Below are positions 335 to 39,544 of a stretch of 64,000 nucleotides of DNA, piece after piece; positions within the stretch are counted from its first letter, which is position 1, and each line of letters starts with the position of its first letter. Made by a program: the position numbers and the translations under genes. Where the stretch lies: assembly GCA_965226885.1 (NCBI GenBank), contig CBDDEL010000017.1, forward strand, positions 416,001 through 480,000. Reading direction: 5' to 3'. The notes below the pieces were generated by a model, which was not told where the DNA came from, did no database searches, and saw only the letters and a program-made list of their open reading frames with translations. Source of the DNA: Opitutales bacterium (lineage in GTDB: Bacteria; Verrucomicrobiota; Verrucomicrobiia; Opitutales; UBA2987).

Positions 335-350
335 GTAACCATTTAGTTAC
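335..350. promoter_or_regulatory. Palindromic operator GTAACCATTTAGTTAC (putative TetR site 1)
   Basis: Divergent intergenic region; flanked by TTGACA at 319-324 (+) and 352-357 (-); exact reverse complement of the site upstream of tetR. Confidence 0.8.
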
Positions 351-413
351 TTGTCAAGGTTGAATTGGTTGAATTCATTTTCTGACTGGAAGAATATTCT
401 GGAAACGCGATTT

Positions 414-1955
414 ATGAAAAGAACGGATATCATCGTTGTCGGAGCCGGCCACAATGGGTTGGTCGCGGCGACCTATCTGGCCCGTGCCGGTTTGGAGGTT
501 CATGTTGTTGAAAAAAAACCCTGGGTCGGTGGCTGCGCCAGAACGGAGGAAGTTTGGCCGGGTTTTCATTTTTCCACCTGTGCCCACTTGATTCATGCCA
601 TTCACCCCAAAATCATGCGTGATTTCAAGCTGAAGGACCGCGGTCTGCGATGGGTGGAAACCGCACCCACCATCTATCTGCGGGAGGATGGGACCTATTA
701 CGGTCCGCCCGGGCACGTTTCTCTCCGCAATCGCTGTGCCGGGAACCTGCAAACCGCGAAGGAGCAAAAGGCCGAAATTGATTACAACGCCTTTAAATTG
801 AGCCTGAACCGGATATTCTCCCCCTACCGTTTGTGCCCTCCGCCTTCTTTGGAAGAATTAATGAGGAAACTTGAGGGAACCCCGGAGGAGACGATCCTGA
901 AAAGGGCGCTGGAAACGAAACTTTGGGATTTACAGGAACAGTTTTTGCAATCGCCCATGCAACTCGATCAATATGCCTGGGAGGGCGCAGCTTTTAACCG
1001 AAACCCGCTGGCCCTGGCCCTGGCTTATAGTTCCATTGAGGAGCCGGAGGAGGGAGAGGGAAGAGGAGAAACGCCGGCCGTGGGATATGTCAAAGGAGGC
1101 ATGGGCGAATTGAGCCGCCTCCTTCTCGACAACGCCCGAGAGGCGGGGGCGACCGTTCATTGCAATCAGGCGGTTTCCCGTTTTATCGTCGAGGGCAAGG
1201 CCGTAACCGGAGTGGTATTTTCCGATGGCGGGGAAATGCGCGCCCCGCGGGTTCTTTCCAACATCGATCCCATTCAGACATTTACCCATCTGGTTTCCGG
1301 CCAACATTTCCCGGCGGGCTTCCGGCAACGTCTGCAAGAGATTCGTTCCAATGTATCCTGCCTCAAACTACTCGCCGTTGTGAAGGAGTTGCCGAAATGG
1401 ACTCATTGGGACGGTGACCCGGATAGAATACATGAGGGGGCCCTCCGCCTGGGTGTATCCCGCCGGCAAGTCTCCGCAGCTTATGACGACCTGGAAGCGG
1501 GCCGCCCGCCCGCCCGCCCGATAATGAGCGTCAATTTCCCTTCCTTCAAAGATGCCAGTCTCGCGCAAAAGGGTTTTCACACCGCATCGGTATGGATTTT
1601 CCCGGCATCGGCTCAATTAAGGGAAGGAAGCTGGGATGACGCGAGGGAGAAGGTGACCGAAAACCTGATCGACCGGATTACGGAATACGCGCCCAACTTC
1701 CGGTCTTCGATCGTGCACAAAAAGCTGCGCACACCCCTCGACCTGGAACGCGATAACTCCCTCACCGATGGGTGCATCTGGCACATTCAACACGAAGGTG
1801 AATTACTTTTTTGGAACCGTCCCCTACCCGAACTTTCACGATACCGGACGCCCCTCAAAGGCCTCTACCTCTGTGGGGCCGGGCAACACCCCGGCGGAGA
1901 AGTGAGCGGCCTGCCGGGACATAACGCGGCCCATGAAATCCTTAAGGAGTTGTAG
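414..1955 (+). CDS. NAD(P)/FAD-dependent oxidoreductase, phytoene desaturase-like (COG1233)
   Basis: GAGHNGLVAA dinucleotide-binding motif; C-terminal YLCGAGQHPGGEVSGLPGHNAA; ATG 414 preferred. Confidence 0.85.
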   Translation: MKRTDIIVVGAGHNGLVAATYLARAGLEVHVVEKKPWVGGCARTEEVWPGFHFSTCAHLIHAIHPKIMRDFKLKDRGLRWVETAPTIYLREDGTYYGPPGHVSLRNRCAGNLQTAKEQKAEIDYNAFKLSLNRIFSPYRLCPPPSLEELMRKLEGTPEETILKRALETKLWDLQEQFLQSPMQLDQYAWEGAAFNRNPLALALAYSSIEEPEEGEGRGETPAVGYVKGGMGELSRLLLDNAREAGATVHCNQAVSRFIVEGKAVTGVVFSDGGEMRAPRVLSNIDPIQTFTHLVSGQHFPAGFRQRLQEIRSNVSCLKLLAVVKELPKWTHWDGDPDRIHEGALRLGVSRRQVSAAYDDLEAGRPPARPIMSVNFPSFKDASLAQKGFHTASVWIFPASAQLREGSWDDAREKVTENLIDRITEYAPNFRSSIVHKKLRTPLDLERDNSLTDGCIWHIQHEGELLFWNRPLPELSRYRTPLKGLYLCGAGQHPGGEVSGLPGHNAAHEILKEL

Positions 1956-1968
1956 AAACGAACGTCCG

Positions 1969-2784
1969 TTATTCGTTGAAATAACTGTATATCAAAGCCT
2001 GAATGCTGCTGGGGTGTGTCCGTTTGATCTCCCATCTTTCTGCATGTTCCTCGTCGCGCCGGAAAAAATACCGCATCTCGTAGGGTGGAGAAATATGCGG
2101 GTAGCTGAATCGGCCGGGATCATTTTTCAAATCCTGGGCCGCTTGCTGGGCGCCTTCGGACATTTTTAAACGAGCACTTTCAGGAGACAGGTGCCGCGCC
2201 CCAAGCTTCGCACGAGCGCATTGAGCGGCGGATAAATTTTCCATTCCATCCGGCAAGAGTCCCTCTTTTACCGAAACGGTTAGGATTCCCGGCGTCAATG
2301 ACTCCGCCTCTTCGCACAATGCCTTTTCACCCGATGCAAAAAAAGAAGGAACCCCAAGTTCCATGGCGCAAAGGGCCACCTGGCCGAATTCGCCAATTGA
2401 AATGCCATTGAGGCTAACGTCGATATAGGAGAAGCTCTGGGTGTGGGTGAGATGGGAAAAAGGAGTCCCCGCTTTGGCGTGCTGCCCGATCCAGCAAATG
2501 CCATCGTAAGTGTTGTCCAACCCTGGCGGGTATTCCATTCCTGGACCTCGAATCAGATCGACCCGAGGATCGAGCAAGGCCGGATCGATGCCTCCTTCGC
2601 CATGACCATCGAGCACGGTTATGGCGGAGACGCCGCCCGCATAGAGCCCCTTGACAGCCGCGTTCACTTCCCTAGTCAGGAGAGCTTGTCCATGATTATA
2701 AAATATTCCATTTCGCACACACCAGTTTTCGTAATCGAGTACACCGGCCACACCTTCGATATCGGTTATAATGTAAATTTTCAT
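1969..2784 (-). CDS. M55 family metallopeptidase (DppA/D-aminopeptidase-like)
   Basis: MKIYIITDIEGVAGV, DGHG, GQHAKAG and LTHT motifs. Confidence 0.9.
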   Translation of the reverse strand: MKIYIITDIEGVAGVLDYENWCVRNGIFYNHGQALLTREVNAAVKGLYAGGVSAITVLDGHGEGGIDPALLDPRVDLIRGPGMEYPPGLDNTYDGICWIGQHAKAGTPFSHLTHTQSFSYIDVSLNGISIGEFGQVALCAMELGVPSFFASGEKALCEEAESLTPGILTVSVKEGLLPDGMENLSAAQCARAKLGARHLSPESARLKMSEGAQQAAQDLKNDPGRFSYPHISPPYEMRYFFRRDEEHAERWEIKRTHPSSIQALIYSYFNE

Positions 2785-2809
2785 CGTCCCTGGGTCGTTG
2801 GGTTTTGAA

Positions 2810-4345
2810 TCAAACTTTCCCCCCGTTCAACATATCCAAATCCGCTTCCAGATCAATATCCGGCGGAACCAGCAGTTCATCCGATTTTGGTTTTACTCTT
2901 TTGCCCCACGCTTCCAATGCTTGATATCGCCGGTCATTTTTCCTAGATTCCGGGCGAACCCATTTAGGGTTCCAATTTTTTTCCAGTTTGGCCAAAAGTG
3001 TCTGTCCGATTTCCTCATACTCCGGTTGACCCCAAAGATCATTTTCTTCCGCTCTGTCTTCATTGAGATTGAACAAAGCCGGCGGCAGGTTTTCATCATC
3101 GACATATTTCCACAACTTCCAGGGACCCGATCTTATCATCTTGGCCGCAAAATAATCACTATCCCCAACGGTATCCACAAATTCGCTGAAAGTTTCATTT
3201 TCCCATTCGCTGGAATCCTCATTTTTCAAGAGCGGAAGCAGTGAGCGCCCCTCGATCATAGGGGGAGGCTCGCCTCCACCCAATTCACATAGAGTAGGAC
3301 CAAGATCCATCAGATTGCAGACTTGGGAAATCGATCGACTCGATCCGAATTTCGCGGGATTCCTGATAATCAGTGGAATGGATACACTTTCCTCGTAAAA
3401 ACTGCTCTTCCACCAACAGCCCTTGGTGCCCGCCATCTCCCCATGATCAGAAGTATAAACGACCGTAGTATCTTCCTTCAACCCGTTAGCTTCGAGTGCC
3501 TCCAGCACCTTGCCGATCTGCTGGTCGAGAAATTCACACATGCCGAAATAGGCGGCCCGGGCAATGCGTATCCGACGTTCGGAAATCGGCGGATCGTCCA
3601 GATCACGGATTCTCCGGAATCGTTTGATGGTGGGCGGGAGGTCTCTTGGAACCGTGGGCGCCTCCACTAATGGATAATAATAATCGAATAGATCGTCGGG
3701 GGCAAAGAAGGGGCAATGCGGAAGAACGTACCCGACAACCGCGGCGAATGGTTGCTGGGAATCTCTTTTCCCTTCGAGATAAGCGCAGGCCGCCTCGGTA
3801 ACTTGTTCATCAAACCATTGATAAAAAGTTCTCCCCTTTCCCGACATTTCAACCGAGGCCCTGGTTTGACCGGCAGTTTCTACAGGAATCCGGCTCCATA
3901 AATTCTGGTGATCCGGCTCGGAACCGGGAGGGCAGGCCGAAAATTCTCCCAATGGCCGTTCCATAAAACCACCTAGTTGATCCTTTCCCACGAAGTGCAT
4001 CCGGCCTATAAGGCTCGTCCTATAGCCAACTGCCCCCAGCGAATGTACCCATGTTGGGGTATTGGGATCAAGCATGTGGCTATTGTCCCAAACGCGGTTC
4101 CGGCTCGGCGAATTGGAAGTAAGAAAACTCATGCGGCTAGGTACACAAATGGGAGCAGGACAATAAGCCTCGTCAAAACGAACCCCCTCAGCCGCTAACG
4201 AATCCAGATTGGGAGTTCGAATAATCGGATTTCCGTAGGCGCCCAAGCAAGACTTGGAGTGCTGGTCGGACATAATGACGAGTAGGTTCTTCATCGACAA
4301 ATAGCGTGGCTCATCAGAAGAAAAAGACTTGTCTTTATTCTCCAT
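2810..4345 (-). CDS. Cys-type sulfatase (choline-sulfatase-like); alternative start at 4294
   Basis: SDQH, CVPSR formylglycine motif, GRMHF, SDHG; no signal peptide; first 9 codons from 4345 resemble the TetR N-terminus. Confidence 0.9.
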   Translation of the reverse strand: MENKDKSFSSDEPRYLSMKNLLVIMSDQHSKSCLGAYGNPIIRTPNLDSLAAEGVRFDEAYCPAPICVPSRMSFLTSNSPSRNRVWDNSHMLDPNTPTWVHSLGAVGYRTSLIGRMHFVGKDQLGGFMERPLGEFSACPPGSEPDHQNLWSRIPVETAGQTRASVEMSGKGRTFYQWFDEQVTEAACAYLEGKRDSQQPFAAVVGYVLPHCPFFAPDDLFDYYYPLVEAPTVPRDLPPTIKRFRRIRDLDDPPISERRIRIARAAYFGMCEFLDQQIGKVLEALEANGLKEDTTVVYTSDHGEMAGTKGCWWKSSFYEESVSIPLIIRNPAKFGSSRSISQVCNLMDLGPTLCELGGGEPPPMIEGRSLLPLLKNEDSSEWENETFSEFVDTVGDSDYFAAKMIRSGPWKLWKYVDDENLPPALFNLNEDRAEENDLWGQPEYEEIGQTLLAKLEKNWNPKWVRPESRKNDRRYQALEAWGKRVKPKSDELLVPPDIDLEADLDMLNGGKV

Positions 4346-4385
4346 AGATGTAACCGTTTAGTTACTATTTATTGAATTTTGTAAA
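4320..4385 (-). repeat. Dispersed 66-bp copy of the tetR promoter/operator/start region (13651-13716)
   Basis: Reverse complement matches 13651-13716 at 59/66 positions by manual alignment. Confidence 0.9.
4350..4365. promoter_or_regulatory. Palindromic operator GTAACCGTTTAGTTAC (site 2)
   Basis: 4 bp upstream of ATG 4345; TTTACA at 4385-4380 on minus strand. Confidence 0.8.
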
Positions 4386-4602
4386 GTTCTTTTTATAGAG
4401 CAAAAAAATTATTGTGATGTTTCGTATTATTTTGCGTTGGATGTAATTTGAAATTTTACTTAGGCGACAAAGGACATGGCAAGCTGTAGAAAATCCGAAT
4501 TCGCGGCGGGGGCCTGATATCTACGAATGAAAACGTCACGAGATTCTGGAACTCAGGTCTGAGATAGGATTCGAATTGTCTGCAATCAATTTGGGGAACC
4601 AG

Positions 4603-5664
4603 ATGGTAAAAAAAATACGGCTTGGATTCATTGGCACAGGCAACATGGGCCATGTGGCCCACCTGCGTAATTATCTTGCAGTTCCTGACTGCGAAGTATG
4701 CGCGCTGGCGGAATTGAGGCCGCAACTGGCCAGGAAAGTCGCCCAACGCTACGGCATCGGGCAGGTTTATCGCGATCATGAAGAACTACTTGCTTCAGCC
4801 GATGTGGACGGCCTGGTCGCCATCCAGCCGTTTGTCCGGCATGATCGACTTGTGCCGAAGTTGCTGGAGGCCCGTTTGCCCCTGCTCATCGAAAAGCCGC
4901 TCGCCCACTCGGTGGAAGCGGGAGATAAAATACTGGCGGCGCAGCGGAAGACGGGAACGCCGCTATATATTGCCTACAACAAGCGCAGCGATCCGGCTGT
5001 GGTCTGGTCGATGGCGTTGATGCGGAAATGGCAACAGAGTGGCCAATACGGGCCGCTCAGGTATATTCGCATATCTATGCCGCCCGGAGATTGGAGGGCG
5101 GAAGCTTTTACCGAACTCGTAAGGACAGAAGAGGTACGCCCGTCACCGGAAATCCCGCCACCCCCTGAAGGCTTTAGCGAAGAATTAGCAAAAGAGTACA
5201 AATATTTTGTCGATTACTACATCCATCAGGTGAATCTTCTGAGGCATTTACTGGGGGAAGATTACGAAGTTGCGTATGCCGATCCGGCTAGAATCGTTAT
5301 GCCCATAAGGTCCCAAAGCGGCGTGCCAGGGATTCTTGAGATGAACGCCTGCCGAACTACCCGCGATTGGCAGGAAGAGGCTTTTATAGCGTTTGAAAAA
5401 GGCTGGATAAAAATAGCTTTGCCCGCGCCACTGGCCGTTAATCGATCTGGGAGTGTCACGGTTTTCCAGGATGCGGGCGATGGGGCCATACCTGAAAAGT
5501 ATTCTCCCACACTGCCCATGATCCATTCCATGCGACAGCAAGCGATTCACTTCGTCAGCACTTTGCGGGGGGAGAAGACCTGCCTGTGCACTGCCGAAGA
5601 AGCCATAAAAGACCTTCGCACCGCGAAATCCTACATCGAACTTTTAGGAGGCAGGCAGGGCTAG
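4603..5664 (+). CDS. Gfo/Idh/MocA family oxidoreductase
   Basis: GFIGTGNMG Rossmann motif, EKP motif, DYYIH. Confidence 0.9.
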   Translation: MVKKIRLGFIGTGNMGHVAHLRNYLAVPDCEVCALAELRPQLARKVAQRYGIGQVYRDHEELLASADVDGLVAIQPFVRHDRLVPKLLEARLPLLIEKPLAHSVEAGDKILAAQRKTGTPLYIAYNKRSDPAVVWSMALMRKWQQSGQYGPLRYIRISMPPGDWRAEAFTELVRTEEVRPSPEIPPPPEGFSEELAKEYKYFVDYYIHQVNLLRHLLGEDYEVAYADPARIVMPIRSQSGVPGILEMNACRTTRDWQEEAFIAFEKGWIKIALPAPLAVNRSGSVTVFQDAGDGAIPEKYSPTLPMIHSMRQQAIHFVSTLRGEKTCLCTAEEAIKDLRTAKSYIELLGGRQG

Positions 5665-5666
5665 CC

Positions 5667-6491
5667 ATGAAGAAAGAGCAAATCGCCATAAACACTGTTT
5701 CCTTAACCATAGACGATCTGGAAGCGGCCTTGGGAGCGATCCGGGAGAGCGGTTTCCTTAAAGTGGAGTTCGCCCTCCGCCAGGTAAAAGAGTACTTCAA
5801 AGCAGGGGGTTCGACGGAAAACCTGCGTCGCGTCCTGGACCGGCTGGGGCTGCGCTGCATCGGCGGTTTTGAATGTATTTTGGCCTGTTTTGCGAAAGAA
5901 GAACAGCGCGAGCGAAACCATGTTCTGCTGAGGGAAAATGCCGGGCTTCTGGCAAATCTGGGAGCCCGCAACATGGTGATAGGGATAGACCGCCCAGATT
6001 CTGCCCAACTAGAGATGGCTCATATTAACGTCATTGCGGAAACCCTCAAAACGGTCGCTGACGATATCGCCGGGACGGGAGTCAGTCTGCTCATCGAATT
6101 TAACTGGGGCTCGATTAAAACCTTGGATGCGGCAGCGCAAATTGTCCGCCGTTCGGGTGCTGCCAACGCGGGCGTCTTGTTCGATCCCGCGCATTATTAC
6201 TGCACACCGACGAAATTCGACCAGCTCGGGCCGGAGAATGTCGCTTGCATCAAACACGTCCATGTGGACGACATGGAAGACATCCCGGCGGAATTCAGCA
6301 ACTGCAATTCGAGTCGCGTCCTGCCGGGGGAGGGCTGTCTCGATCTGGCGGCGCTGATCGGCCGCCTGGAGGCCCATGGGTATGGCGAAGATTACTCCAT
6401 CGAATTGTTCAACAAGGATTTGTGGAAGCTGCCGGTTCCCGAAGCCGCTTCCCTGATGTATGCCAGCATGGAAAACCTCTGCACTCCTTGA
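5667..6491 (+). CDS. Sugar phosphate isomerase/epimerase (xylose isomerase-like TIM barrel)
   Basis: IEF, DPAH, HVHVDD, RVLPGEG and SIELF motifs. Confidence 0.85.
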   Translation: MKKEQIAINTVSLTIDDLEAALGAIRESGFLKVEFALRQVKEYFKAGGSTENLRRVLDRLGLRCIGGFECILACFAKEEQRERNHVLLRENAGLLANLGARNMVIGIDRPDSAQLEMAHINVIAETLKTVADDIAGTGVSLLIEFNWGSIKTLDAAAQIVRRSGAANAGVLFDPAHYYCTPTKFDQLGPENVACIKHVHVDDMEDIPAEFSNCNSSRVLPGEGCLDLAALIGRLEAHGYGEDYSIELFNKDLWKLPVPEAASLMYASMENLCTP

Positions 6492-7150
6492 TTTGCCTTT
6501 CCAGTGGCGCAACGCTTAAACTTTAACCAATTATTGCAACTGTCATGACTGAATTGAAAATGAAAACGCGTACGGGAGGATTTGTCATTGGTTTCCGAGT
6601 CGGCACGGGCGGCTGGCAAGAAAATCTCAATACTGCTATCGACTGGGCTCTGAAGCAAGGCTTTGGGGCGCTCGATCTGGTAGGCCGACCTCCGGAAGAC
6701 ACCAAACGTGTTCGGGAGACCGGTTTGCAGGTAGGCTCTGTGGACTTGGTCGGCTGGAAGGCGCTGCTTTCTCCAGATCCTGGCAAGCGCCGCCAAGCAT
6801 TCGCCGCCGCAGAATCGCATATCAGGTCCTGCGCGACGTTCGGGGCGCGTAATTTTTTCACTATCATGCTGCCCGAAGATCCTTCCCTTGAGCGGGCGGA
6901 AAACTTCAAATACATGGTGGAGAGCTATGGCGCTATGGCCCCGGTTCTTGAAAAAACGGAAAGCCGTATTGTCATAGAAGGCTGGCCTGGTCAGGGAGCG
7001 CTTTGTTGCACACCGGAAAGCTGCCGGGCCTTTTTTACCGAGTGTCCATTTGCTTGTATGGGTATCAATTACGATCCTTTGCACCTCATCCGTATGGGTA
7101 TTGAACCGCTTCGATTTTTGCGTGAATTTGCCCCGCGCGTATTTCACTTA

Positions 7151-8281
7151 TACCAAATCGCAAAAGGATTGATAAAGATTAAAAAACAGCTATAAAGGCG
7201 GAATGAGAAGATATATGGGAACCGATGAAGACCGTGAACGTATCAAGAAATTGCTCAACAAAGAGGCTGTCGGCTGGCGTAAAGAGCGTTTGGTGGCATT
7301 AAAAATGGGCTTCCAGCCGCACCACAGCATTGATGAAATTGGAGCCATCGTGGGCCGAGGCAAAGCGACGATCCAGCGTTGGTTTGACAAATATCGTGCT
7401 GCAGGGCTCGGGGCGGTGCTTACACGCGCCTACAAAGGCGGGATCAAAAGCCGTTGCGACAAAGAGGTGGAGGCCTTCTTGCTCAATGGTTTGAAGGTCG
7501 CGCGCTGGAACACAGCCGTTCAGGCGGGGCAAGAGCTGGAGCGACATTTCGGGCGCTCCTTCGCCTACAAGACGGTGTGGCGATGGCTAAAAAAATGCGC
7601 CGGGGTGCTTCGAGTCCCTCGCCCCGTGCATGAGAAACGGGACTCGGCAAAAGCGGAAGCGTTCAAGCGAGACTTTTTTAAGATCCTCCAGGAGCTTTCC
7701 CTCACCCGAGGCAATCGGGTTCGGGTGTGGTTTGCCGATGAAAGCCGTTTTGGTTTGCTTCCGGTGTACCGCCGGTGCTGGACGCAAAGAGGGCTTCGGC
7801 CGCACAAAAAATATCAGACAAGATACCAGTGGAGCTACTGTTACGGAGCCCTCGACGTGGTCAACGGCGAGATGGTATGCATCCAAACCCCTAGCACGAA
7901 TCTACAGTGGACGGAGGCTTTCCTCCAACAGATCAAAAAGCAATATCCTGAGGAGGAACATGTGGTTGTATGGGACGGGGCAGGCTTCCATCCGCACGAC
8001 TCGGAGCACCCCAACGTCCCCCCGGGCATACATATCGTGAATTTGCCGCCGTATAGTCCTGAACTCAACCCGATTGAAAGACTTTGGGATATGATACAGG
8101 ATCAAACGGCCAACAAACTGTGGCCGAGCATTGAGCGACTCGAAGAAGTCGTCGCAACCCATCTCAAAGACTGGTGGGAGGACACTGAAAAAGTCCTCTC
8201 TTTAGTTGGCGGAGGCTGGCAGCACATTCAAGCAAACGCTTCTGCCAAATAATTTATTATCATACCTAATGAGATTTGGTA
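7151..8281 (+). mobile_element. IS630 family insertion sequence
   Basis: Terminal IRs TACCAAATCGCAAAAGG / CCTAATGAGATTTGGTA; TTA (TA core) duplicated at 7148-7150 and 8282-8284. Confidence 0.9.
7203..8252 (+). CDS. IS630 family transposase, single intact ORF
   Basis: HTH region, FADESRF, WDGAGFH and LPPYSPELNPIE DDE motifs. Confidence 0.95.
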   Translation: MRRYMGTDEDRERIKKLLNKEAVGWRKERLVALKMGFQPHHSIDEIGAIVGRGKATIQRWFDKYRAAGLGAVLTRAYKGGIKSRCDKEVEAFLLNGLKVARWNTAVQAGQELERHFGRSFAYKTVWRWLKKCAGVLRVPRPVHEKRDSAKAEAFKRDFFKILQELSLTRGNRVRVWFADESRFGLLPVYRRCWTQRGLRPHKKYQTRYQWSYCYGALDVVNGEMVCIQTPSTNLQWTEAFLQQIKKQYPEEEHVVVWDGAGFHPHDSEHPNVPPGIHIVNLPPYSPELNPIERLWDMIQDQTANKLWPSIERLEEVVATHLKDWWEDTEKVLSLVGGGWQHIQANASAK

Positions 8282-8579
8282 TTACACGCCAAGGACACCA
8301 TCCGCTTGCCGGACGATCTGTATGAATACGGCACTGAGCAGCCGGCCACTTTTAAAAAGAAACACCGTTATGGAGGATTTAGCTGGCGCTACACTCTGCC
8401 CGGGCTGGGCGAGGCGCCATGGACGGAGATATTCCGTCTATTGCTCAAGAGCGGTTACACCGGAATGGCCAGCATCGAATTGGAAGACGAGAATTTTAAC
8501 GGTGCCGAGGAAGGGGAAAAATTTGCTTTGGCACACTCGATGCGATACCTTGCCGGTTGCTGAACCCGGTTTCGCTGAG

Positions 8580-8604
8580 GACCGGCAGACCGGCAGACCG
8601 GCAG
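8580..8604 (+). repeat. Tandem repeat (GACCGGCA)x3
   Basis: Directly visible, intergenic. Confidence 0.85.
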
Positions 8605-8637
8605 TAGTGGAAAGTTTTAACGAATATAAACACTTCA

Positions 8638-9539: not shown

Positions 9540-9555
9540 CACTAGAGGAATTGAC

Positions 9556-11416: not shown

Positions 11417-11440
11417 GAGGCGCCTTTTCCAGACGATTCT

Positions 11441-30920: not shown

Positions 30921-30948
30921 GGGAGACAAAAAGAGGAGACGATGTTGT

Positions 30949-31791
30949 ATGGTTGATATAAAGGAAAAGAAACTATCGGTAGTCCTCGTCGGCAGCGGCG
31001 CGGTGCGGGTGAATCCACGGAGGGGTGGAACTTGTCAGGTGGTAAGGGTCGGGGGGCGTAATTTGCTCTTCGATTGCGGGCGTTTGGCGGTCCATAACAT
31101 GACGCAGTTCGGATTTCCGGTCGAGTCGATCGACGAGGTTTACATCAGCCACCTGCATTTCGATCACGTTTGCGATCTGGCGCAGTTGATACTGCTTTCC
31201 TGGAACAACGGAAGGAGTCATAAAATGCCCGTCTATGGGCCGCAGGGAATCGCGGATTTTATGGAAGAAGGCATCCGCAAAGCCTATGCGCATGATATTG
31301 CCAGTCGTCTTTCCCATGGAAAACTAACCCACGGATTCGAGTGGGATGCGACCGAGATTTCCCGTGATGGCTTGTTAAGAGAGAACCTGAACCCCCAATT
31401 CGCCATCAGCACCCTTTCCACTGAGCATGGAGGCTTGAACAATATCAATTATCGCCTCGATGCGGGAAACAAGCGAATCGTCATCACGAGCGACACGGAA
31501 CCGGACGAGCGGCTGATCGAATTCAGCCGTGGGGCAGATCTTTTGATTGTGGAATGTTCCGGCACTCAGGAGTTCCTCCAGACCCAAGGTTGGGGAGGCT
31601 GGCACATGAACCCGGAAGAGGTCGGCCGTCTGGCCCGCAAGGCAGACGTCAAGCAGGTCGTAATCAAGCACCTGGTGATCGAGAATTTTTCCGACGATCC
31701 TCAGGTCTCAGAAAAAATGGCGGAAAAAATCAGACACCTTTGTCCCAGCGAAGTCCTGGTCGGCGAAGACGGGATGCGATTCGATTATTAG
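30949..31791 (+). CDS. MBL-fold metallohydrolase (RNase Z/AtsA-like)
   Basis: LFDCG, SHLHFDH, TSDT, HMNP, KHL. Confidence 0.88.
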   Translation: MVDIKEKKLSVVLVGSGAVRVNPRRGGTCQVVRVGGRNLLFDCGRLAVHNMTQFGFPVESIDEVYISHLHFDHVCDLAQLILLSWNNGRSHKMPVYGPQGIADFMEEGIRKAYAHDIASRLSHGKLTHGFEWDATEISRDGLLRENLNPQFAISTLSTEHGGLNNINYRLDAGNKRIVITSDTEPDERLIEFSRGADLLIVECSGTQEFLQTQGWGGWHMNPEEVGRLARKADVKQVVIKHLVIENFSDDPQVSEKMAEKIRHLCPSEVLVGEDGMRFDY

Positions 31792-31843: not shown

Positions 31844-33463
31844 TCAGCCGGAAAAATCCTTGAGATCGCGAAGCATAACCTGAGCCGCGTTGTATCCGGG
31901 CAATCCCGTAACATTTCCGCCAGGATAGGAAGAGGAACCGCATAGGTAAAGCGAATCGAAGCAGGTTCTGTAATGCCCGGCACCGGGGAATGGGCGGTTA
32001 TACCCCAGTTGCCCGTTGGCAAAACTGCCTACCAGAAGATCGCCTTCCCTCATGTTGGGGAAACCCCTGAAGGTATCATACGCACTGCGCGTAAAAGATG
32101 AAAGAATGGCGCCTTCGAGGTTGGGCGCATATTCGGTCCATAGTTTAATCATGTCGTCGCCGTGGGTATCCTTGTAATCATCCCAATTATGAGGATCCCC
32201 ATGAAGAGCATAGGGCAGCTTTTCCCACATAAAGGCCGTATGCATGCCATTGGGTGCTTGAGTGGGATCGAACACGGTGGGACTACAACCCCACATTACC
32301 GTTTTAGGGATAGTACCTTTCTGATGATGGCGCACTAGATGGCGCACTATTTCCGGAAACTGCTCAAAAGTCTCCAATCCTAGAACAACCATTAAAGCTT
32401 CATTGAGGTGGGGATGATTTTCTGCCGCGCGGTAGCGGGGAGGTTCTTTCAGGTTAAGGTAGACACCAAACAAAGGCGCAAGGAGGTTATACTCAAAATT
32501 TTCGGCCTTTTTTGCCCAGTCATCAGGCAGTGCCTTGCGGTCCAGCAGTTCGAGAAAAGTCTGTTGAGGATTGAGACTGGATGCCACGAGTTTACTCGCT
32601 TTGTAGTAGCGGCCATCGGCGGTCTCCACGCCCACAGCCTTGCCGGATTCCACTTGAATCCGTTTTAGCTCAATATTCGTAACTATTTTACCACCAGTTG
32701 CTTCTACAGCGCCAATAAGCGCTTTGGCAAGACGAGCGGAACCGCCACGCGCCATCTGAGGCCGCCCTTTGCTGGCCAAAAGCGCGGGTATATGATACCC
32801 GAAACCCTTGCATCGTAAGTCCACCTCGCGCAGACCATTGAAGAATAGCAAGCCCGCCTGCACCGTAGGATGCTTAAATTCGCGCGTGACAAACTCGATG
32901 GGTGATAGCTTGCTGGTTTCCAGTAAAAGCCGTCCCTCTGAGGTCTTTTGCAACATGGCCTCTCTCTCGGCCCAAGGAAGGGGCGGAGACTGACTTTCGG
33001 GAATGAGGATCTGTTCCACTATCGGCACAAACCGGTCGTGCCACATGACCAGGGTCTCAGCGTCATCCTGGCTGAAACGCGCAAAGGATTCTACCGTCTT
33101 TTCTAAGCTGGTCCACCATTCGAGCGCGTCGCCGTTTTTCAGGATAACGGCTGTGTTCAACTCAGGTTCGATGTAATCCAGACCGTGATTTTCAAGTTCC
33201 AGCTCTTTAAACCAGGGTAAATGCGTAACACCCGTAACACCCCTATGGAAAAATGAGTGCGTGTTATGAAGAAAGCCGGGATGTTTGGTGTCTTCGACAG
33301 TGACAGAGGCTCCGCCGGCAATCGGGCGGCGATCCAGACTCAGGGTCTTCAGCCCGGCTTTTCCCAAATGAGCCTGCGTGATGAGCCCGTTGTGGCCAGC
33401 GCCGAGAATAATCGCATCGTATTCTGTGTTATCATCTGAAATATCGTTGCGGATACTATTCAT
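31844..33463 (-). CDS. NAD(P)/FAD-dependent oxidoreductase, phytoene desaturase-like (COG1233)
   Basis: GAGHNGL; LYLCGSSSYPGGNVTGLPGYNAA; carries in-frame 9-bp and 12-bp tandem duplications. Confidence 0.85.
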   Translation of the reverse strand: MNSIRNDISDDNTEYDAIILGAGHNGLITQAHLGKAGLKTLSLDRRPIAGGASVTVEDTKHPGFLHNTHSFFHRGVTGVTHLPWFKELELENHGLDYIEPELNTAVILKNGDALEWWTSLEKTVESFARFSQDDAETLVMWHDRFVPIVEQILIPESQSPPLPWAEREAMLQKTSEGRLLLETSKLSPIEFVTREFKHPTVQAGLLFFNGLREVDLRCKGFGYHIPALLASKGRPQMARGGSARLAKALIGAVEATGGKIVTNIELKRIQVESGKAVGVETADGRYYKASKLVASSLNPQQTFLELLDRKALPDDWAKKAENFEYNLLAPLFGVYLNLKEPPRYRAAENHPHLNEALMVVLGLETFEQFPEIVRHLVRHHQKGTIPKTVMWGCSPTVFDPTQAPNGMHTAFMWEKLPYALHGDPHNWDDYKDTHGDDMIKLWTEYAPNLEGAILSSFTRSAYDTFRGFPNMREGDLLVGSFANGQLGYNRPFPGAGHYRTCFDSLYLCGSSSYPGGNVTGLPGYNAAQVMLRDLKDFSG

Positions 33464-33507: not shown

Positions 33508-33523
33508 GTAACTAAACAGTTAC
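33508..33523. promoter_or_regulatory. Palindromic operator GTAACTAAACAGTTAC
   Basis: Divergent gap; on minus strand fills the 17-bp spacer after TTGATA. Confidence 0.8.
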
Positions 33524-33557: not shown

Positions 33558-33746
33558 ATGAGTAATAAAGGCATTCCGATTCGAGCGACATTGGTAGGCA
33601 GTGGACCGGAACGTATTAACAAAAGGCGTAGCGGTAGATGCCAGGTAGCCAGTATCGATGGACAAAATCTGTTGTTTGATTGCGGGCGCAACGCAATTCG
33701 CAATTTGATCGATGAAGTCTTTAACACAAACCTGGTGTTAAAATGA
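33558..33746 (+). pseudogene. Internally deleted MBL-fold hydrolase paralog
   Basis: LVGSG.ERIN.RRSG.CQV...NLLFDCGR matches the N-terminus of 30949-31791; no HxHxDH motif. Confidence 0.75.
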
Positions 33747-34492
33747 AAATTTTGTTTACAGGCGCGGGCGGATTTCTGGGACAAGGGCTGGTCAAGCCTT
33801 TTGCTCGGGATCATGATCTGAGGCTGATCGATATTGCTGATTTCGAAACCGGCCATGAGAAACTGATGGGGGATGTATCGGACCTGGATACCGCTTTGCG
33901 TTCCGTCGAGGGTGTGGATGCCATCGTGATCGCGCATATGGCTTCGCGTCAGGCGGGCGCTTATGAAAACCCTTCCACTTGTTTCGATGCCAATGTCAGA
34001 GGGACCGCGAACCTGTTCTTTGCAGCGAATAAACTTGGAGTGAACAAAGTTTGCCTAATCTCCAGTACGGGTGCCGTTAGCGGAAATCCCGATGGTATGT
34101 ATCTGACACGTAACCTTTACCCCAAGGGACGCGATATGTACACCCTGACCAAAGCGTGTCAGGAAGTAATCGCGGAACAATACCACCGAATTTGTGGAAT
34201 CAAGACAGCAGTTCTAAGAGTGGGGGGCATTATCGATACTGACGAAGGAACGAATAAATACGGTATAAAGAAAACCGATCATATAGATGTGCTTGTCGAC
34301 CGCCGGGATATTGGCACGGTTGCAAAGCTTGCGCTGGAATTACCCAATCTCGAGTATGAAGTATTCTATGTTTACGGATGCCTTGAAGCCGATGAATTTT
34401 GCGATGCGGGTTACACCCGAAAGCGCTTGCAATGGACACCACGTTATCAAGCCAAAGATATTGCAAAAAAACTCCATTCAGGAGCAATTTGA
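33743..34492 (+). CDS. NAD-dependent epimerase/dehydrogenase (uronate dehydrogenase-like)
   Basis: TGAGGFLG, ISS, YTLTK. Confidence 0.8.
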   Translation: MKILFTGAGGFLGQGLVKPFARDHDLRLIDIADFETGHEKLMGDVSDLDTALRSVEGVDAIVIAHMASRQAGAYENPSTCFDANVRGTANLFFAANKLGVNKVCLISSTGAVSGNPDGMYLTRNLYPKGRDMYTLTKACQEVIAEQYHRICGIKTAVLRVGGIIDTDEGTNKYGIKKTDHIDVLVDRRDIGTVAKLALELPNLEYEVFYVYGCLEADEFCDAGYTRKRLQWTPRYQAKDIAKKLHSGAI

Positions 34493-34523
34493 AGAAGAAA
34501 AATCTAAATTGGCCGATTTTTAA

Positions 34524-36077
34524 ATGGAAAAATTAATCATTGATACAGAAACGGTGCAGGCGCGTATAAGCCGGCACATTTACGGGCATTTTTCGGAACA
34601 CTTGGGGCGTTGCATATACGGAGGCTTCTGGGTGGGCGAAGATTCCAAAATTCCCAACACAAGGGGTATTCGCGACGACATCGTCGAGGCGCTGCGACGA
34701 ATCAAGATACCCAATCTACGTTGGCCCGGCGGCTGTTTCGCCGATGAGTACAATTGGATGGACGGGATCGGGCCGAGGGAAAAACGCCCCGTCATGGTCA
34801 ACACCCATTGGGGCGGCGTGACCGAGAACAATCATTTTGGAACCCACGAATTCATGGATCTCTGCCAGCAGCTCGGCTGTGAAGCCTACGTGGCTGGAAA
34901 TATGGGCAGCGGGACCGTTCGGGAGATGCAGCAGTGGGTGGAATACCTCAACTTAGGCGGCGTCAGCCCGATGGCGAACCTGCGCGCCGCTAACGGGCGC
35001 AAAGAGCCCTGGAACGTGAAATTCTTTGGCGTGGGCAATGAAAACTGGACCTGCGGCGGCAATATGCGGGCGGAGTATTATGCCGACGAGTATAGGCGTT
35101 ATGCGACCTATTGCCGTGATTTTGCGAACGACGATTTTTCCTTCAGTCGGGATAGCGGCGAGGTCCTCTTGTTCAAAATTGCCTGCGGTCCAAAATCCCG
35201 CGACTACAATTGGACGGAGGTGCTCATGGACCGGATATCGCCCCGGCAGATGCAAGGGCTGGCCCTGCACTACTACACCATACCCGGTTCCCCGCGTGCA
35301 TTGTCTATTCCATATACCGAAGGGCGGGACATCGCGGAGAAGAGGGGTTCGGCCACGGAATTCACCGCCACGGACTGGTTTGCCACCATGAAAAGAGCGC
35401 TTATTATGGAGGAGCTGGTAGAGAAACATTCCGCCATCATGGACAAATATGATCCCGAAAAAAAGGTCGCGTTAGTGGTGGATGAATGGGGTACCTGGTA
35501 TGAATCGGAAGCGGGCACCAACCCCGGTTTTCTCTACCAGCAGAACACGCTGCGGGACGCATTGGTGGCCGGGCTGACGCTCAATATTTTCAACAACCAC
35601 TGTGAGCGCGTGCGATTGGCCTGCATTGCCCAGACGATCAACGTGCTGCAAGCCATGATCCTCACGGATGAGGAAAAGATGACGGTCACGCCCAGTTATC
35701 ATGTCTTCGAGATGTACAAAGTGCACCACAACGCAACCCGGCTCCCCATCGAATTGGAGTGCGGTCCCTACCGAAGCGGTAAAAAGGAAATCCCCTCCCT
35801 CTCCGCCTCGGCTTCCCGGCAGGACGATGGTAAAGTGCACCTCTCTATTTGCAATTTGCATCCCGATGAAGACAAGGAGGTATCCGTGGAATTTCGCGGA
35901 CTGCGCCCCCGGTCCGTCAAAGGGCGGATACTCACTTCCGGGTCAATGAACGCCCACAACACATTTGATCAACCAGAGCGCATAAGGCCGGTGGAATTCA
36001 GCGAGGCGAGATGCCAAGGGCAGAGTGTTTACCTGAAAGCGCCGGATAAATCCGTCATTGTTCTGGAAATTGACTGA
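34524..36077 (+). CDS. GH51 alpha-L-arabinofuranosidase
   Basis: [36 protein letters not shown]. Confidence 0.95.
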
Positions 36078-36097: not shown

Positions 36098-37423
36098 CTA
36101 GGTTGCGACCGATTTCTCCTTCAGGGCGTCGGTGACGATTTCCAAAGTCTTTTTGATGTCCTCTTCGGTGTGGGCGCAACTGATGAACCATATGCCCCGG
36201 CAGGTCGTGCGGACTCCCCGGCGCAACAAGGCTTCCCGCAGCCGGAACCAGCGTTGGCGGTCATTGTGGAGCACGTAGTCGCGGTAATTGCGTGGAGCGG
36301 ATTGGTCCGTCACGGTAACCTGAAAAACCGCCCCCGGTCCGCTCACACACAAAGGAATACCCGCGCGCGCACCAAGTTCAGTCAAGCCCTCCATAAGCCG
36401 CCGGCCCAGTCTTTGCAATCGTTCGGCATAACCTTGGTCCGTCTCCAGAGCGCCCAAGGCGGCTTTGGCCGAGGCCAGGCAGAGGGGGTTGCCGTTGAGC
36501 GTGCCGGCATGGACGACATCGCCGTTGATAATATGCTGCATCAATTCCTCGCGGGCTCCGAGGGCCGCAATGGGCACGCCTCCGCCGAGAGCTTTGCCCA
36601 GGACGCAGATGTCGGGCCGCACCCCGCTCCAGCTTTCGGCTCCTCCCAGTCCGAAACGGAATCCGCTTATGGTTTCATCGAAAACGAGCACCGTCCCGTG
36701 TTCGTCGCAGAGGTTCCTCAAGTGCTGCAGAAACCCCGCTTCGGGCTGGATGCAGCCATTGTTGCAAAGTGTCGGTTCACAGATAATGGCGGCAATTTCA
36801 CCACCGTGCCGCGCGAACAGATTGTCCACCGATTCCGGGTTGTTCCACTGGGCCAGGAGGTGGTATGAGGCAAGTTCGGGTATAATGCCCTGGCTCAAAT
36901 GCCGGGGCGGGGTTCCATCTCCCTCCACGCCGTTCCAGGTATCCGGGGGCGGAGCGACTCCGAAAAGGCCTTCGTCGTTCCAACCGTGGTAGTGCCCCTC
37001 GAAGCGGAGAAATTTCCACTTTCCGGTATGGAAACGTGCCAACCGTGTGACCGCGATAAGTATCTCGGTAGCTGAATTGCCGAAACGCACCTTTTCACAA
37101 ACCGGGATATGTTTTTGCAGAAATTCGGCTACATCGATTTCGAGCCGGGACTGCGCGGCCCAATGGGTTCCTTTACCGGCTTGATCGCAGAGCGCCTTGG
37201 CGATGGAGGGATGGGCGTGCCCCAAAAGGAGCGCCCCCTGTCCGATCTGGTAGTCGATGTACTCGTTGCCGTCCTCATCCCACAGGCGGGAACCCCGGCC
37301 ATGCGTGTGGTAGAGGGGGACCGGCGTTTCCATCAGCCGAATGCCGGAATTGACTCCGCCTGCGATGGAATTTTTGGCCCGATCGAAAAGTTCTTTTGAT
37401 TGGTTGAATGAGTGATTATTCAT
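36098..37423 (-). CDS. Class III PLP aminotransferase (glutamate-1-semialdehyde aminomutase-like)
   Basis: FEGHYHG, FDETISGFR, GKALGGG, HAGTLNGNP. Confidence 0.85.
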   Translation of the reverse strand: MNNHSFNQSKELFDRAKNSIAGGVNSGIRLMETPVPLYHTHGRGSRLWDEDGNEYIDYQIGQGALLLGHAHPSIAKALCDQAGKGTHWAAQSRLEIDVAEFLQKHIPVCEKVRFGNSATEILIAVTRLARFHTGKWKFLRFEGHYHGWNDEGLFGVAPPPDTWNGVEGDGTPPRHLSQGIIPELASYHLLAQWNNPESVDNLFARHGGEIAAIICEPTLCNNGCIQPEAGFLQHLRNLCDEHGTVLVFDETISGFRFGLGGAESWSGVRPDICVLGKALGGGVPIAALGAREELMQHIINGDVVHAGTLNGNPLCLASAKAALGALETDQGYAERLQRLGRRLMEGLTELGARAGIPLCVSGPGAVFQVTVTDQSAPRNYRDYVLHNDRQRWFRLREALLRRGVRTTCRGIWFISCAHTEEDIKKTLEIVTDALKEKSVAT

Positions 37424-37467
37424 GGATTTTTAGCGGCTGTGTCTTCCCGCTCCGATAACGGCGATTT

Positions 37468-38235
37468 TCATTGTTGGAAACTCAAAACCCCGTCATCCGG
37501 CCCGGTTGGGCAGGCTTCCTTGGAGGCATCGAAGCGGCCGATACCGGTGGTTATACGCTTATTGCTCAAGGCATTGAAGCATATGATAAAGGAGCGGCGC
37601 GACTTGCCGGAGGTGTTGGCTTGGGAGCCGTGCAGGAGATTACAATTGAAATAAAGAACCGACCCGGGCTCCATTTCGCAGTAAACACGCTCGAACAGCG
37701 GTTCCAACTGGGCCATGCGGTTTGGATCGACAGCGGTTTGTTGTCCGATTTTGCAGTGCTCCAGCCGACCCAGTAAATGTGAACCTCTGAGGACTTCAAG
37801 GCAGCCATTTTCCCTAGTGGCGGCATCGAGAGCGACGAAGGCGCTTATCATGCGGGGAAAGACAAAACCATTGTTGTACCAATAACCGTAATCCTGGTGC
37901 CATTCCCAGGCTCCGCCAGTCTTCGGCTCCTTCAAAATAACCTTGCCATGATAGAAGGAGATTTCCTCGCCGAGCAGAATGCGCACCCGATTGACGATGC
38001 CAGGTAAAGTAGTGACGGCCGACCAAATGTCGTCCTTCAACTCGTTCCAAATGGCCAGCCGGACCAATTTCCCCGTCCCGTCAACGGTTGAGCTGCCCTC
38101 GGTTTGGACCCGTCCGTTGCCTTCGATGGCATCGGTCAAGAGATTTACCTCATCACTGTTGATGACATCCGGAACCAGGAGATATCCGTCCCGGTGGTAT
38201 TGGGCTGCTTGTTCTTCGTTTAGTTGCAATGGCAT
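37468..38235 (-). CDS. Phytanoyl-CoA dioxygenase (PhyH) family protein
   Basis: WEWHQDYGYW, ENGCL, LLHGS. Confidence 0.9.
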   Translation of the reverse strand: MPLQLNEEQAAQYHRDGYLLVPDVINSDEVNLLTDAIEGNGRVQTEGSSTVDGTGKLVRLAIWNELKDDIWSAVTTLPGIVNRVRILLGEEISFYHGKVILKEPKTGGAWEWHQDYGYWYNNGFVFPRMISAFVALDAATRENGCLEVLRGSHLLGRLEHCKIGQQTAVDPNRMAQLEPLFERVYCEMEPGSVLYFNCNLLHGSQANTSGKSRRSFIICFNALSNKRITTGIGRFDASKEACPTGPDDGVLSFQQ

Positions 38236-38290
38236 AACATTTTTCCTTCTCGATATTGATTGAAAACAAAATAAGATGTGAATTAAAAAA

Positions 38291-39502
38291 TTACTCTCGA
38301 AACCAGCGTTCACCCGGTTTGGCGTAGAGACGGGCCGCCGATTCATTCAAGGTCACGCCGATTCCCGGTTTGTCCGTTATGGCAACTCGTCCTCCTTGAA
38401 TGATGGGTTCCTCCTCGATTAAATCGTTCCAGAAAGGCACGTCCTGCCCGTGGTATTCGAGGACCGCGAAATTGGCCGAGGCCGCACAAACATGAGCCGC
38501 CGCCATCAAACCGAGGGGACCCGCGATATTATGCGGGGCCAGGGATACGCCATAGCGGTCCGAGATGTCGGCGATTTTTTTGGCCTCGGCCACGCCCCCG
38601 CATTTTTGCACATCCGGGGCAATGAAATCGATGGCCTGAGCCTCCAGCAGGGGAAGAACTCCGTAAACCAAATAAAGATTTTCACCCGTTAAAATGCGAA
38701 CTCGGGAAGCTTTTTTGACCTCGGCGATATGCCGCCAGTCTTCCGGCGGGCAGGGGTCTTCCAGCCAATACGGGTTAGTCGATTCGATGGCGTGGGCGAT
38801 GCGGATGGCGTCGGCCGGTTTGAACCGGAAATGGCAATCCCATGCCAAATCCACGTCGTCTCCGACGGCCTCCCTCACAGCCTGGACCACAGCCTCCATT
38901 TTAGCCAATTCTTTATTGGACAGGGGCCGGTGCATCTCGTCTCCGGGTGAGACGACGATATAGTCGAGATCGAATTTCAAGGCATCGAAGCCTTTGTCCA
39001 CAACCTCCTGAGCCCTCTTGGCGTAAGCTTCCGGCATATAAATCTCCGACGGGCGTTCCCCTTCACCCTCTTTCATCCATTTTGGGAAGCGTTTTTCATG
39101 CATGGGCGAAATGCTTGATATATTTTCTCCCGCGTGGCTGTCGGCATATATGCGCACGGAATCGTGAATCTTTCCCCCCAGAAGTTGATAAACGGGGATC
39201 CCGTAAAATTTGCCGGCAATGTCGTGCAGGGCCGCGTCCACACCGCTAATGGCATTCCAGATGATGCCCGCGCTGGATCCAGCGCCGCTTCCTTTCCGCG
39301 CCAGGTAGCGGATGTTGCGTTCCAGTTCCCGCGGATCGCGCCCGATCAAGAGCCCTTCCATATCCCGCAGGATAGCCGTCAGGCCGGGTGCGGGGAAACA
39401 TTCTCCGGTGCCGTCGAGGCCATCCTGGTCTGTGTAGAGGCGCACATAGGTATAGTCGAGATTGGCCTCTACGACGGCTGTGGAAAGTCCGGTAATTTTC
39501 AT
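38291..39502 (-). CDS. Mandelate racemase/muconate lactonizing enzyme family (acid-sugar dehydratase-like)
   Basis: ALKFD, DCH, WLEDP, TGEN, APHN. Confidence 0.9.
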   Translation of the reverse strand: MKITGLSTAVVEANLDYTYVRLYTDQDGLDGTGECFPAPGLTAILRDMEGLLIGRDPRELERNIRYLARKGSGAGSSAGIIWNAISGVDAALHDIAGKFYGIPVYQLLGGKIHDSVRIYADSHAGENISSISPMHEKRFPKWMKEGEGERPSEIYMPEAYAKRAQEVVDKGFDALKFDLDYIVVSPGDEMHRPLSNKELAKMEAVVQAVREAVGDDVDLAWDCHFRFKPADAIRIAHAIESTNPYWLEDPCPPEDWRHIAEVKKASRVRILTGENLYLVYGVLPLLEAQAIDFIAPDVQKCGGVAEAKKIADISDRYGVSLAPHNIAGPLGLMAAAHVCAASANFAVLEYHGQDVPFWNDLIEEEPIIQGGRVAITDKPGIGVTLNESAARLYAKPGERWFRE

Positions 39503-39528
39503 ATTGAAACCATTCGGGATTGACAAAA

Positions 39529-39544
39529 GTAACCAACTGGTTAC
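39529..39544. promoter_or_regulatory. Palindromic operator GTAACCAACTGGTTAC
   Basis: 3 bp after TTGACA (39520-39525) in a divergent gap; exact reverse complement of the 24893 site. Confidence 0.8.

Follow-up and report, generated by a model that had tools for sequence, protein, structure and literature searches.

A clustered GTAAC-N6-GTTAC palindrome and its likely cognate TetR-family regulator in a gene island of an Opitutales bacterium

Introduction

Which protein reads the palindrome GTAAC-N6-GTTAC, which recurs in the intergenic gaps of one stretch of an Opitutales genome, and which genes does it place under common control? The stretch analyzed here (the window) comprises 64,000 nucleotides (nt), positions 416001-480000 of contig C17 in the 5.48-Mb, 17-contig assembly G000, and positions given without a contig name are those of the window. 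A first-pass annotation of this DNA had assigned the palindrome as operator to a TetR-family repressor, the product of 13691-14335 (+ strand; hereafter TetR), a pairing that our comparative genomics strongly supports. We describe below where the sites lie in the genome and relative to promoters, how they track the regulator across the order, and what the regulon would consist of.

Results

Distribution of the motif in the window and the genome

Our scan of the window recovers exactly the seven perfect sites that the first-pass annotation had listed (335, 4350, 13671, 19695, 24893, 33508 and 39529), two pairs of which (335/13671 and 24893/39529) are correctly described as reverse complements, together with the one-mismatch copy at 24920 (ATAAC...GTTAC), and agrees that no perfect site follows 39544. 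Not one of 100 dinucleotide-preserving shuffles of the window contains any match, and the eight sites with at most one mismatch compare with 0.57 on average, and never more than 2, in shuffled sequence. That the sites are intergenic and mostly in divergent gaps is borne out as well: all window sites lie between long open reading frames (ORFs), and six of the seven perfect-site gaps are divergent, the one at 19695 being co-directional. The proposed extent of ~40 kb, in contrast, was too narrow. The whole genome holds only 12 perfect sites, namely the seven of the window, four upstream of it at C17:392198, 393672, 401821 and 411465 (4.5-24 kb off), and a twelfth at C14:308010, in front of a second TetR copy. 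Rather than being scattered, 11 of the 12 fall inside C17:392198-455544, a stretch of 63 kb or ~1.2% of the genome.

The clustering is specific to this arrangement of half-sites. The reversed pattern, with the half-sites in inverted arrangement, matches once in the genome and nowhere in the island; spacers of N4, N5, N7 and N8 yield three, one, four and zero genome matches, and three unrelated 5-N6-5 palindromes yield nine, five and one, again with none in the island. All 12 perfect sites carry Y at position 6 and R at position 11 and are preceded by A-rich and followed by T-rich flanks, so that the refined motif reads aaGTAACY-N4-RGTTACtt. One-mismatch sites number 33 genome-wide, and because of this background the two island members of this class, 24920 and C17:386408 (the latter flanked by divergent sulfatase and epimerase-like genes), are weakly supported on their own.

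Position relative to promoters

The first-pass annotation had also placed the sites beside TTGACA, TTTACA or TTGATA hexamers. Counting as -35-like any hexamer with at most one mismatch to TTGACA that ends within 18 nt upstream of the operator, we find one in 14 of the 24 orientations of the 12 genome sites, versus 10.4% of 1500 random non-ORF positions, and 11 of the 12 sites have such a hexamer on at least one side; the intervening gaps measure 1, 1, 3, 3, 3, 4, 8, 9, 10, 10, 12, 14, 14 and 14 nt. Given these hexamer positions, a protein seated on the 16-bp operator would occlude spacer, -10 region or start point, and at a gap of 3 nt, on our reading of the flanks, the distal half-site and its T-rich flank (TACttt) would stand at the expected place of the -10 hexamer.

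The TetR-family protein

The protein encoded at 13691-14335 combines an N-terminal TetR_N domain (PF00440, E 1.3e-15, 57.4 bits versus a cut-off of 24, residues 26-72 of the 218-residue ORF) with a C-terminal TetR_C_29 domain (PF17938, E 1.2e-26, 93.6 bits), the ATG at 13691 being its likely start since the listed ORF start, 13679, falls inside the operator. Its AlphaFold model is all-helical (mean per-residue confidence, pLDDT, 85.7) and RutR-like in fold: every match listed by Foldseek is a TetR-family protein, the top ones (4jyk, 4xk4, 6z1b and 3loc) at template-modeling (TM) scores of 0.76-0.84 and 22-23% identity and the best, Escherichia coli RutR (4jyk_B), at TM 0.78/0.84 and 22% identity. 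A sequence search of the PDB returns distant, mostly uncharacterized TetR proteins (best 3npi, E 1.5e-15), with no hint of a ligand among these matches. As computed from the sequence, the palindrome would overlap the regulator's own or a divergent promoter, in the manner expected of the family. By domain content, predicted fold and operator arrangement the protein is a TetR-family member, for which DNA binding and ligand release are predicted.

Across 31 orthologues of 52-83% identity, the helix-turn-helix block V49-K61 (VNKRMVYHYFGSK), which contains the recognition helix, is invariant, and so are several ligand-domain blocks (WEN, F-Y-NR-LSQ), a pattern that fits both a conserved operator and a conserved effector. 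The island ORFs scanned, eight leftover small ones included and insertion sequence (IS) transposases set aside, yielded no further family of DNA-binding regulators. The second TetR copy, on C14, is 98.6% identical in amino acid sequence and belongs to a duplication (C14:307364-309114, 96% nt identity over 1757 bp) that comprises TetR, the operator and the divergent gene, which resembles short-chain dehydrogenases/reductases (SDR-like), and lacks the gene resembling dihydrodipicolinate synthase (DHDPS-like) that accompanies them in the window; it is inserted between the tyrosyl- and aspartyl-tRNA synthetase genes tyrS and aspS.

Co-occurrence of motif and regulator

The link between palindrome and TetR rests chiefly on comparison between genomes. 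Among 41 close relatives, TetR has three carriers at E<=1e-20 (G000, G023 and G024), and none of the four same-genus genomes has it; G023 holds a single perfect site in 3.4 Mb, in the gap between TetR (55% identity) and the SDR-like gene, and G024 has a one-mismatch site in the same gap. A sample of 201 genomes of the order, each at least 90% complete and called at E<=1e-40, contains 11 carriers, nine of which, with the reservation that all these genomes are kin, hold a perfect site, versus 20 of the 190 genomes without TetR; the 10 carriers other than G000 have 13 perfect sites and the 190 non-carriers 23 together. In five of those 10 (G023, G058, G083, G100 and G119) the TetR match has its 5' end 10-37 nt away from a site. 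Five of the background sites in TetR-less relatives were inspected, and none has a TetR, SDR-like or DHDPS-like gene within 4 kb.

Loci surrounding TetR orthologues (45-73% identity) were further collected, 80 from species-representative genomes and 80 from metagenomes, with record titles naming Opitutales, Opitutaceae, Puniceicoccaceae and other Verrucomicrobiota. The genome loci (1.18 Mb) contain 64 perfect sites with the Y and R positions and the metagenome loci (0.71 Mb) contain 42, or 54-59 per Mb, and at least one is present at 44 of the 80 genome and 28 of the 80 metagenome loci. Sites with at most one mismatch occur within 250 nt upstream of TetR at 18 genome and 13 metagenome loci, just downstream of it at 17 and 13, and elsewhere in the locus at 27 and 18; across the order, the site accompanies the orthologues, whose upstream regions the first-pass annotation had proposed to check. 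The closest orthologue in a collection of 185,579 species has 58% identity by its best aligned segment, and metagenome assemblies contain relatives of 83% and 73%, the former on an 87.5-kb contig that also encodes a DHDPS-like relative of 84%, the latter on a 3.6-kb contig with the site 9 nt before its ATG.

The most consistent comparative feature is the SDR-like gene that follows the site. By clustering of ORFs from 84 sources, a site lies at most 400 nt upstream of this family in 45 of the 50 sources containing the family, and a tblastn recount over the 160 loci places one at most 300 nt upstream of 73 out of the 75 SDR-like genes for which 120 nt or more of 5' flank is available. In the related loci the DHDPS-like gene comes after the SDR-like one. 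The TetR-less genomes G001 (same genus), G030 and G035 serve as a negative control. They possess the SDR-like/DHDPS-like pair (40-56% identity), and in the ~10 kb around it there is no site with at most one mismatch: the palindrome is missing from all three TetR-less core operons.

One further site touches the question of specificity. G001:C49:178330 (L169 4001-4016) is the only perfect copy in a same-genus genome that lacks TetR; it stands 14 nt after a TTGACA and inside a longer palindrome, tatatGTAACTAAAAAGTTACatata, with no TetR, SDR-like or DHDPS-like gene within 4 kb, and may be the operator of a different regulator.

Conserved core and growth of the regulon

Genes that recur with TetR, the site and the SDR-like/DHDPS-like pair encode an M20 peptidase/deacylase, an AGE-family epimerase, UxuA, an SDR, amidohydrolases, a NagB/6-phosphogluconolactonase-family protein, a Gfo/Idh/MocA oxidoreductase, a TIM-barrel protein, a DegT aminotransferase and a RidA-like protein, as well as transporters (SSF and MFS) and a TonB-dependent receptor. 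TetR and the SDR-like/DHDPS-like operon would probably make up the ancestral regulon, which is conserved across the order, with the other genes variable. Going by family names, the gene content of this core suggests catabolism of an amino sugar, an N-acyl amino sugar or a sugar acid. The first-pass notion of one pathway is not borne out by this comparison: conservation is limited to the core, and the local genes are for the most part additions specific to the strain.

G000 has the most sites of any genome examined, with 12 perfect copies as compared with two to nine in five other carriers, the nine belonging to a cultured one titled Horticoccus sp., and zero to four in the 10 carriers of the order sample, and it alone has them crowded into one island, the layout of the others having been viewed less closely. 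How such growth may proceed is visible at the 4350 site, where ~75 nt (window 4290-4400) duplicate the cassette that lies between TetR and the SDR-like gene, at 87.5% over 72 nt. The copy includes the first nine TetR codons, which now open a sulfatase ORF (MENKDKSFS versus MKNKDKSFS); the Pfam sulfatase domain begins at residue 19 of this 2810-4345 ORF. Judging by this alignment, at least one unit was recruited by the copying of a 75-nt promoter-operator cassette. A small palindrome, AAAGAC-TT-GTCTTT, lies within the first TetR codons (13691-13720) and is kept in all three cassette copies, the other two being at 4315-4345 and on C14; it may serve as a further protein site or as a hairpin of the 5' RNA.

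Operators and putative units of the island

The first-pass estimate of ~11 transcription units and ~30 genes fits our map, which has 12 putative units in the window, ~20 in all and roughly 45-50 genes; operon extents are inferred, and units are counted in both directions of each gap. The first operator of the window, GTAACCATTTAGTTAC (335..350), occupies the divergent gap between a unit that runs leftwards out of the window (a 590-residue unknown protein and an enolase-superfamily protein) and a CrtO/CrtI-like flavin adenine dinucleotide (FAD) oxidoreductase gene (351..1955, + strand), for which a start later than the listed TTG is probable; the TTGACA hexamers of this site end 10 nt (+ strand) and 1 nt (- strand) before it. 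The second, GTAACCGTTTAGTTAC (4350..4365), sits inside the ~75-nt copy of the bidirectional TetR promoter-operator cassette. To its left is a putative unit at 1969..4345 (- strand), made up of the sulfatase gene (2810-4345) and an M55 D-aminopeptidase-like gene (1969-2784), and to its right one at 4576..10500 (+ strand) with genes for a Gfo/Idh/MocA oxidoreductase, a xylose-isomerase-like TIM barrel, a second TIM-barrel protein, two unknown ORFs and a BD-FAE esterase, the second TIM-barrel gene being cut by an IS630 element (7203-8252).

Between the core operon and the TetR gene, and 4 nt before the ATG of the latter, lies GTAACTAAATGGTTAC (13671..13686), with TTGACA ending 14 nt upstream and with orthologous sites in G023, G024, G058, G083, G100 and G119. 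The core operon (10526..13634, - strand) encodes the SDR/epimerase-like protein (12606-13634; Pfam Epimerase at E 2e-7, with a distant match to MoeE5), the DHDPS/N-acetylneuraminate-lyase-like protein (11441-12490) and a GNAT protein (10526-11416). The DHDPS-like copy itself has no Pfam match and a weak PDB match to DHDPS; its homologues number at least 8000, many of them with PF00701 and a DHDPS/N-acetylneuraminate-lyase name. The overlapping frame 12580-13620 was considered as the gene divergent from TetR and rejected, its product being of low complexity and the real gene being 12606-13634.

Further along, GTAACTAAAGGGTTAC (19695..19710) is found in a co-directional gap upstream of the SDR unit and downstream of a truncated sulfatase gene, with TTTACA ending 9 nt upstream on the - strand; the unit (14448..19603, - strand) consists of the SDR gene (18734-19603), an M81/MlrC-like peptidase gene (17217-18893) and a gene for a 921-residue TPR protein (14448-17213). 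Operator GTAACCAGTTGGTTAC (24893..24908), 3 nt downstream of a TTGACA, is followed after 11 nt by the candidate second operator ATAACTATCCAGTTAC (24920..24935), weak alone on account of its one mismatch, and the two stand between a mannitol-dehydrogenase-family (tagaturonate-reductase-like) gene (23451..24725, - strand) and a putative unit (25122..31791, + strand) for a TonB-dependent receptor, an 1130-residue beta-propeller protein and an MBL-fold hydrolase. In the TetR-bearing relative G119, two perfect sites adjoin end to end in a 16-bp register (G119:C12:25976-26007), and this pair together with that at 24893/24920 suggests tandem operators at some promoters.

The remaining two sites of the window are GTAACTAAACAGTTAC (33508..33523) and GTAACCAACTGGTTAC (39529..39544), the latter 3 nt downstream of a TTGACA and the last of the cluster. 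The former, with TTGATA ending 12 nt (+ strand) and 1 nt (- strand) upstream, lies in the divergent gap between a second CrtO-like FAD oxidoreductase gene (31844..33463, - strand) and a putative unit (33743..36077, + strand) of an NAD-dependent epimerase-like gene and a GH51-type alpha-L-arabinofuranosidase gene. The latter separates a putative unit for an enolase-superfamily acid-sugar dehydratase, a PhyH dioxygenase and a class-III aminotransferase (36098..39526, - strand) from one for a WelO5-like Fe/2-oxoglutarate enzyme and a DegT-type aminotransferase (39569..41865, + strand), and DegT-type genes recur in the related loci (cluster 9). Upstream of the window, site-fronted genes comprise a gluconolactonase-ABC-transporter unit, a 2-hydroxyacid-dehydrogenase/ComA/DUF3604/D-serine-dehydratase-like unit, an aldo-keto reductase gene, a RidA gene, a second M81 peptidase gene with an aminotransferase gene, HUMPS and TIM-barrel genes, an amidohydrolase gene and another sulfatase gene.

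Several IS elements interrupt the island and mark IS-driven decay. At 6545-8252 the IS630 element abuts the truncated TIM-barrel gene; at 19794-23276 a two-ORF ISNCY-type transposase adjoins the sulfatase gene, which is without ~60 N-terminal residues; a 135-residue sulfatase fragment remains at 42234-42641; and at 44016-48648 a TonB-dependent receptor gene is split by an IS3-type element (45511-46599), to which a second IS3-type ORF at 60072-61160 has near-identical Pfam scores. Just past the last operator, at a distance of 3 kb, a GntR-family gene (42756-43859) heads a different gene set (42756-53979), in which it is followed by genes for an Fe-alcohol dehydrogenase, a canonical DHDPS-family protein, an SBD_N/NBD_C (DUF1537-type) kinase and a PdxA-like dehydrogenase. 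No GTAAC-N6-GTTAC site occurs within this set, which we take to resemble four-carbon acid-sugar catabolic modules.

Discussion

To explain the palindrome and its distribution, we consider it likely that aaGTAACY-N4-RGTTACtt is the operator of the RutR-like TetR encoded at 13691-14335 and of its C14 copy, with binding and repression as predictions from sequence. From what is known of the TetR family we infer a mechanism in which a TetR dimer would insert one recognition helix into each of two successive major grooves (11 bp separate the half-site centers) and at most sites would cover the spacer, the -10 and the start region 1-14 nt after a TTGACA-like -35, so as to stop RNA polymerase at either or both of the promoters in a divergent gap. 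Through the 13671 site TetR would repress its own gene, and a small-molecule intermediate accommodated in the C-terminal TetR_C_29 pocket may release it from the DNA. The G000 regulon would then consist of 12 operators before the ~20 putative units in one IS-rich island, with sulfatases, M81/M55 peptidases, aminotransferases, acid-sugar dehydratases, a TonB receptor and an ABC transporter among the recruited genes.

Several observations weigh against this assignment or narrow its reach. C17:401821 is without a -35-like hexamer within 18 nt, and C17:411465 and 4350 have one on the minus-strand side only, so that with the geometry off at three of the 12 sites some may act otherwise or not at all. 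G024 and G157, two of the 11 TetR-bearing genomes, lack a perfect site, and the 20 TetR-less genomes have one or two each, which means that the motif is not exclusive to the TetR system. Around the orthologues, 18 of the 80 genome and 36 of the 80 metagenome loci, many of them short contigs, are devoid of any site with at most one mismatch, and 30 of 114 related-locus sites fall inside an ORF of a conserved cluster, a count that is an upper bound because it includes antisense shadow ORFs of high-GC DNA. Finally, the related loci were chosen by the presence of TetR, and the genomes of the order are kin and not independent samples, so the contrast between carriers and non-carriers overstates independence.

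A different reading is that the palindrome is bound by some other factor from elsewhere in the genome, such as a CRP/FNR-type or GntR-type dimer, with TetR merely traveling with the cluster. CRP-type sites share the 5-N6-5 layout, physical binding by TetR is a prediction, the G001 site has a promoter-like context with no TetR nearby, 3 kb beyond the last site there is a GntR-family gene, and 20 of the 190 TetR-less genomes have perfect sites. Yet the site tracks TetR (9 of 11 versus those 20 of 190), abuts its start codon in G023, G058, G083, G100 and G119 and is absent, along with TetR, from three of three core operons, while neither the island ORFs scanned nor the clustered site-adjacent families (SDR-like, TetR, transporters and enzymes) include another regulator; we regard such a factor as decidedly unlikely. 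The irregular geometry at C17:401821, C17:411465 and 4350, the TTGACA that lies downstream of the C17:411465 site on the + strand, the service of the 19695 site to one direction only and the IS-disrupted genes beside sites, which suggest partial decay of the island, could instead mean that TetR binds but activates, or has no effect, at some promoters, leaving a functional regulon much smaller than 12 sites imply. In our estimation this is unlikely, since 11 of the 12 sites have a -35-like hexamer 1-14 nt upstream on at least one side and all 12 keep the full 12-position consensus, which argues for selection on every site.

The palindrome might also be devoid of any regulatory role: a piece of some dispersed repeat or copied promoter cassette, a target of type-I restriction-modification or a product of chance. 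The sites at 4350, 13671 and C14:308010 do share the ~75-nt cassette, and bipartite 5-N6-5 patterns resemble type-I targets, but the other nine sites have unrelated flanks, and blastn with the TetR region finds the cassette copies only; a restriction-modification target would not cluster, as these sites do, in the promoter gaps of one island, the sites are conserved beside orthologues of 45-58% identity in high-GC genomes, and no site arises in any of the 100 shuffles. We accordingly hold a motif without function to be extremely improbable, and return to TetR as the reader of the palindrome.

The switch itself would be of an ordinary, well-known kind; what sets the regulator-operator pair apart is its conservation throughout an under-studied order, its unusual expansion in this genome and the visible copying of a cassette. 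A bolder picture, which we offer tentatively as possible rather than probable, is that the two near-identical TetR copies act as master switch of a ~75-kb island of 45-50 genes for the degradation of sulfated, amino-group-bearing glycans in a marine Verrucomicrobium, that the regulon has grown from a two-gene core by cassette copying and new sites, and that the SDR-like/DHDPS-like core constitutes an undescribed catabolic route, an intermediate of which is the inducer. Our literature search for this regulator and motif found no paper among the matches listed, with most subscription journals outside its coverage, and transcription-factor regulons in Verrucomicrobia appear poorly charted. The pair described here is clean and testable, and its carriers within the order number hundreds of uncultured and a few cultured members. 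By labeling co-regulated genes, the motif gives a handle on a widespread, uncharacterized SDR-like/DHDPS-like operon and on a large set of sulfatase, peptidase and aminotransferase genes left unconnected by annotation alone. With 12 operators as against zero to nine in other carriers, and with a copied cassette, G000 shows regulon growth in progress. The tight 16-bp operator and its predicted cognate repressor could, in addition, serve as a genetic tool for Verrucomicrobia.

Among known systems, RutR (YcdC) of E. coli, the regulator of pyrimidine utilization, is the best structural and the second-best NCBIfam match of TetR, and is a TetR-family dimer with a small polar ligand (uracil, from PDB titles). 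The RutR box is a 16-bp palindrome with the half-site TTGACCA. The likeness to RutR that the first-pass annotation had noted extends to the fold, but neither to the family cut-offs nor to the operator: identity is only 22%, the half-site here is GTAACY in GTAACY-N4-RGTTAC, the C-terminal domain is TetR_C_29, and no rut-type genes were found among the units flanking the sites. That TetR is RutR itself was rejected on scores of 55.1 bits versus 368 (TIGR03613) and 41.5 versus 230 (NF011584).

McbR, the TetR-type repressor of sulfur metabolism in Corynebacterium glutamicum, offers a parallel in layout, for it recognizes a strictly conserved TAGAC-N6-GTCTA palindrome and governs a metabolic regulon (PMC2723105), so that the 5-N6-5 operator and the multi-operon metabolic regulon are common to both. 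Half-site, phylum and metabolism differ, and McbR is not among the sequence or fold matches of TetR. The McbR regulon is moreover dispersed on the chromosome, whereas 11 of the 12 sites in G000 are gathered in the 63-kb stretch of one island. In classical cases such as TetR-TetA, QacR and AcrR, the repressor is divergent from its target, with a palindromic operator in the shared promoter region and self-regulation, and here, too, the operator ends 4 nt before the ATG of the divergent TetR gene; but where those systems control a single efflux or resistance gene, the palindrome of G000 stands before catabolic operons, at 12 operators in one genome.

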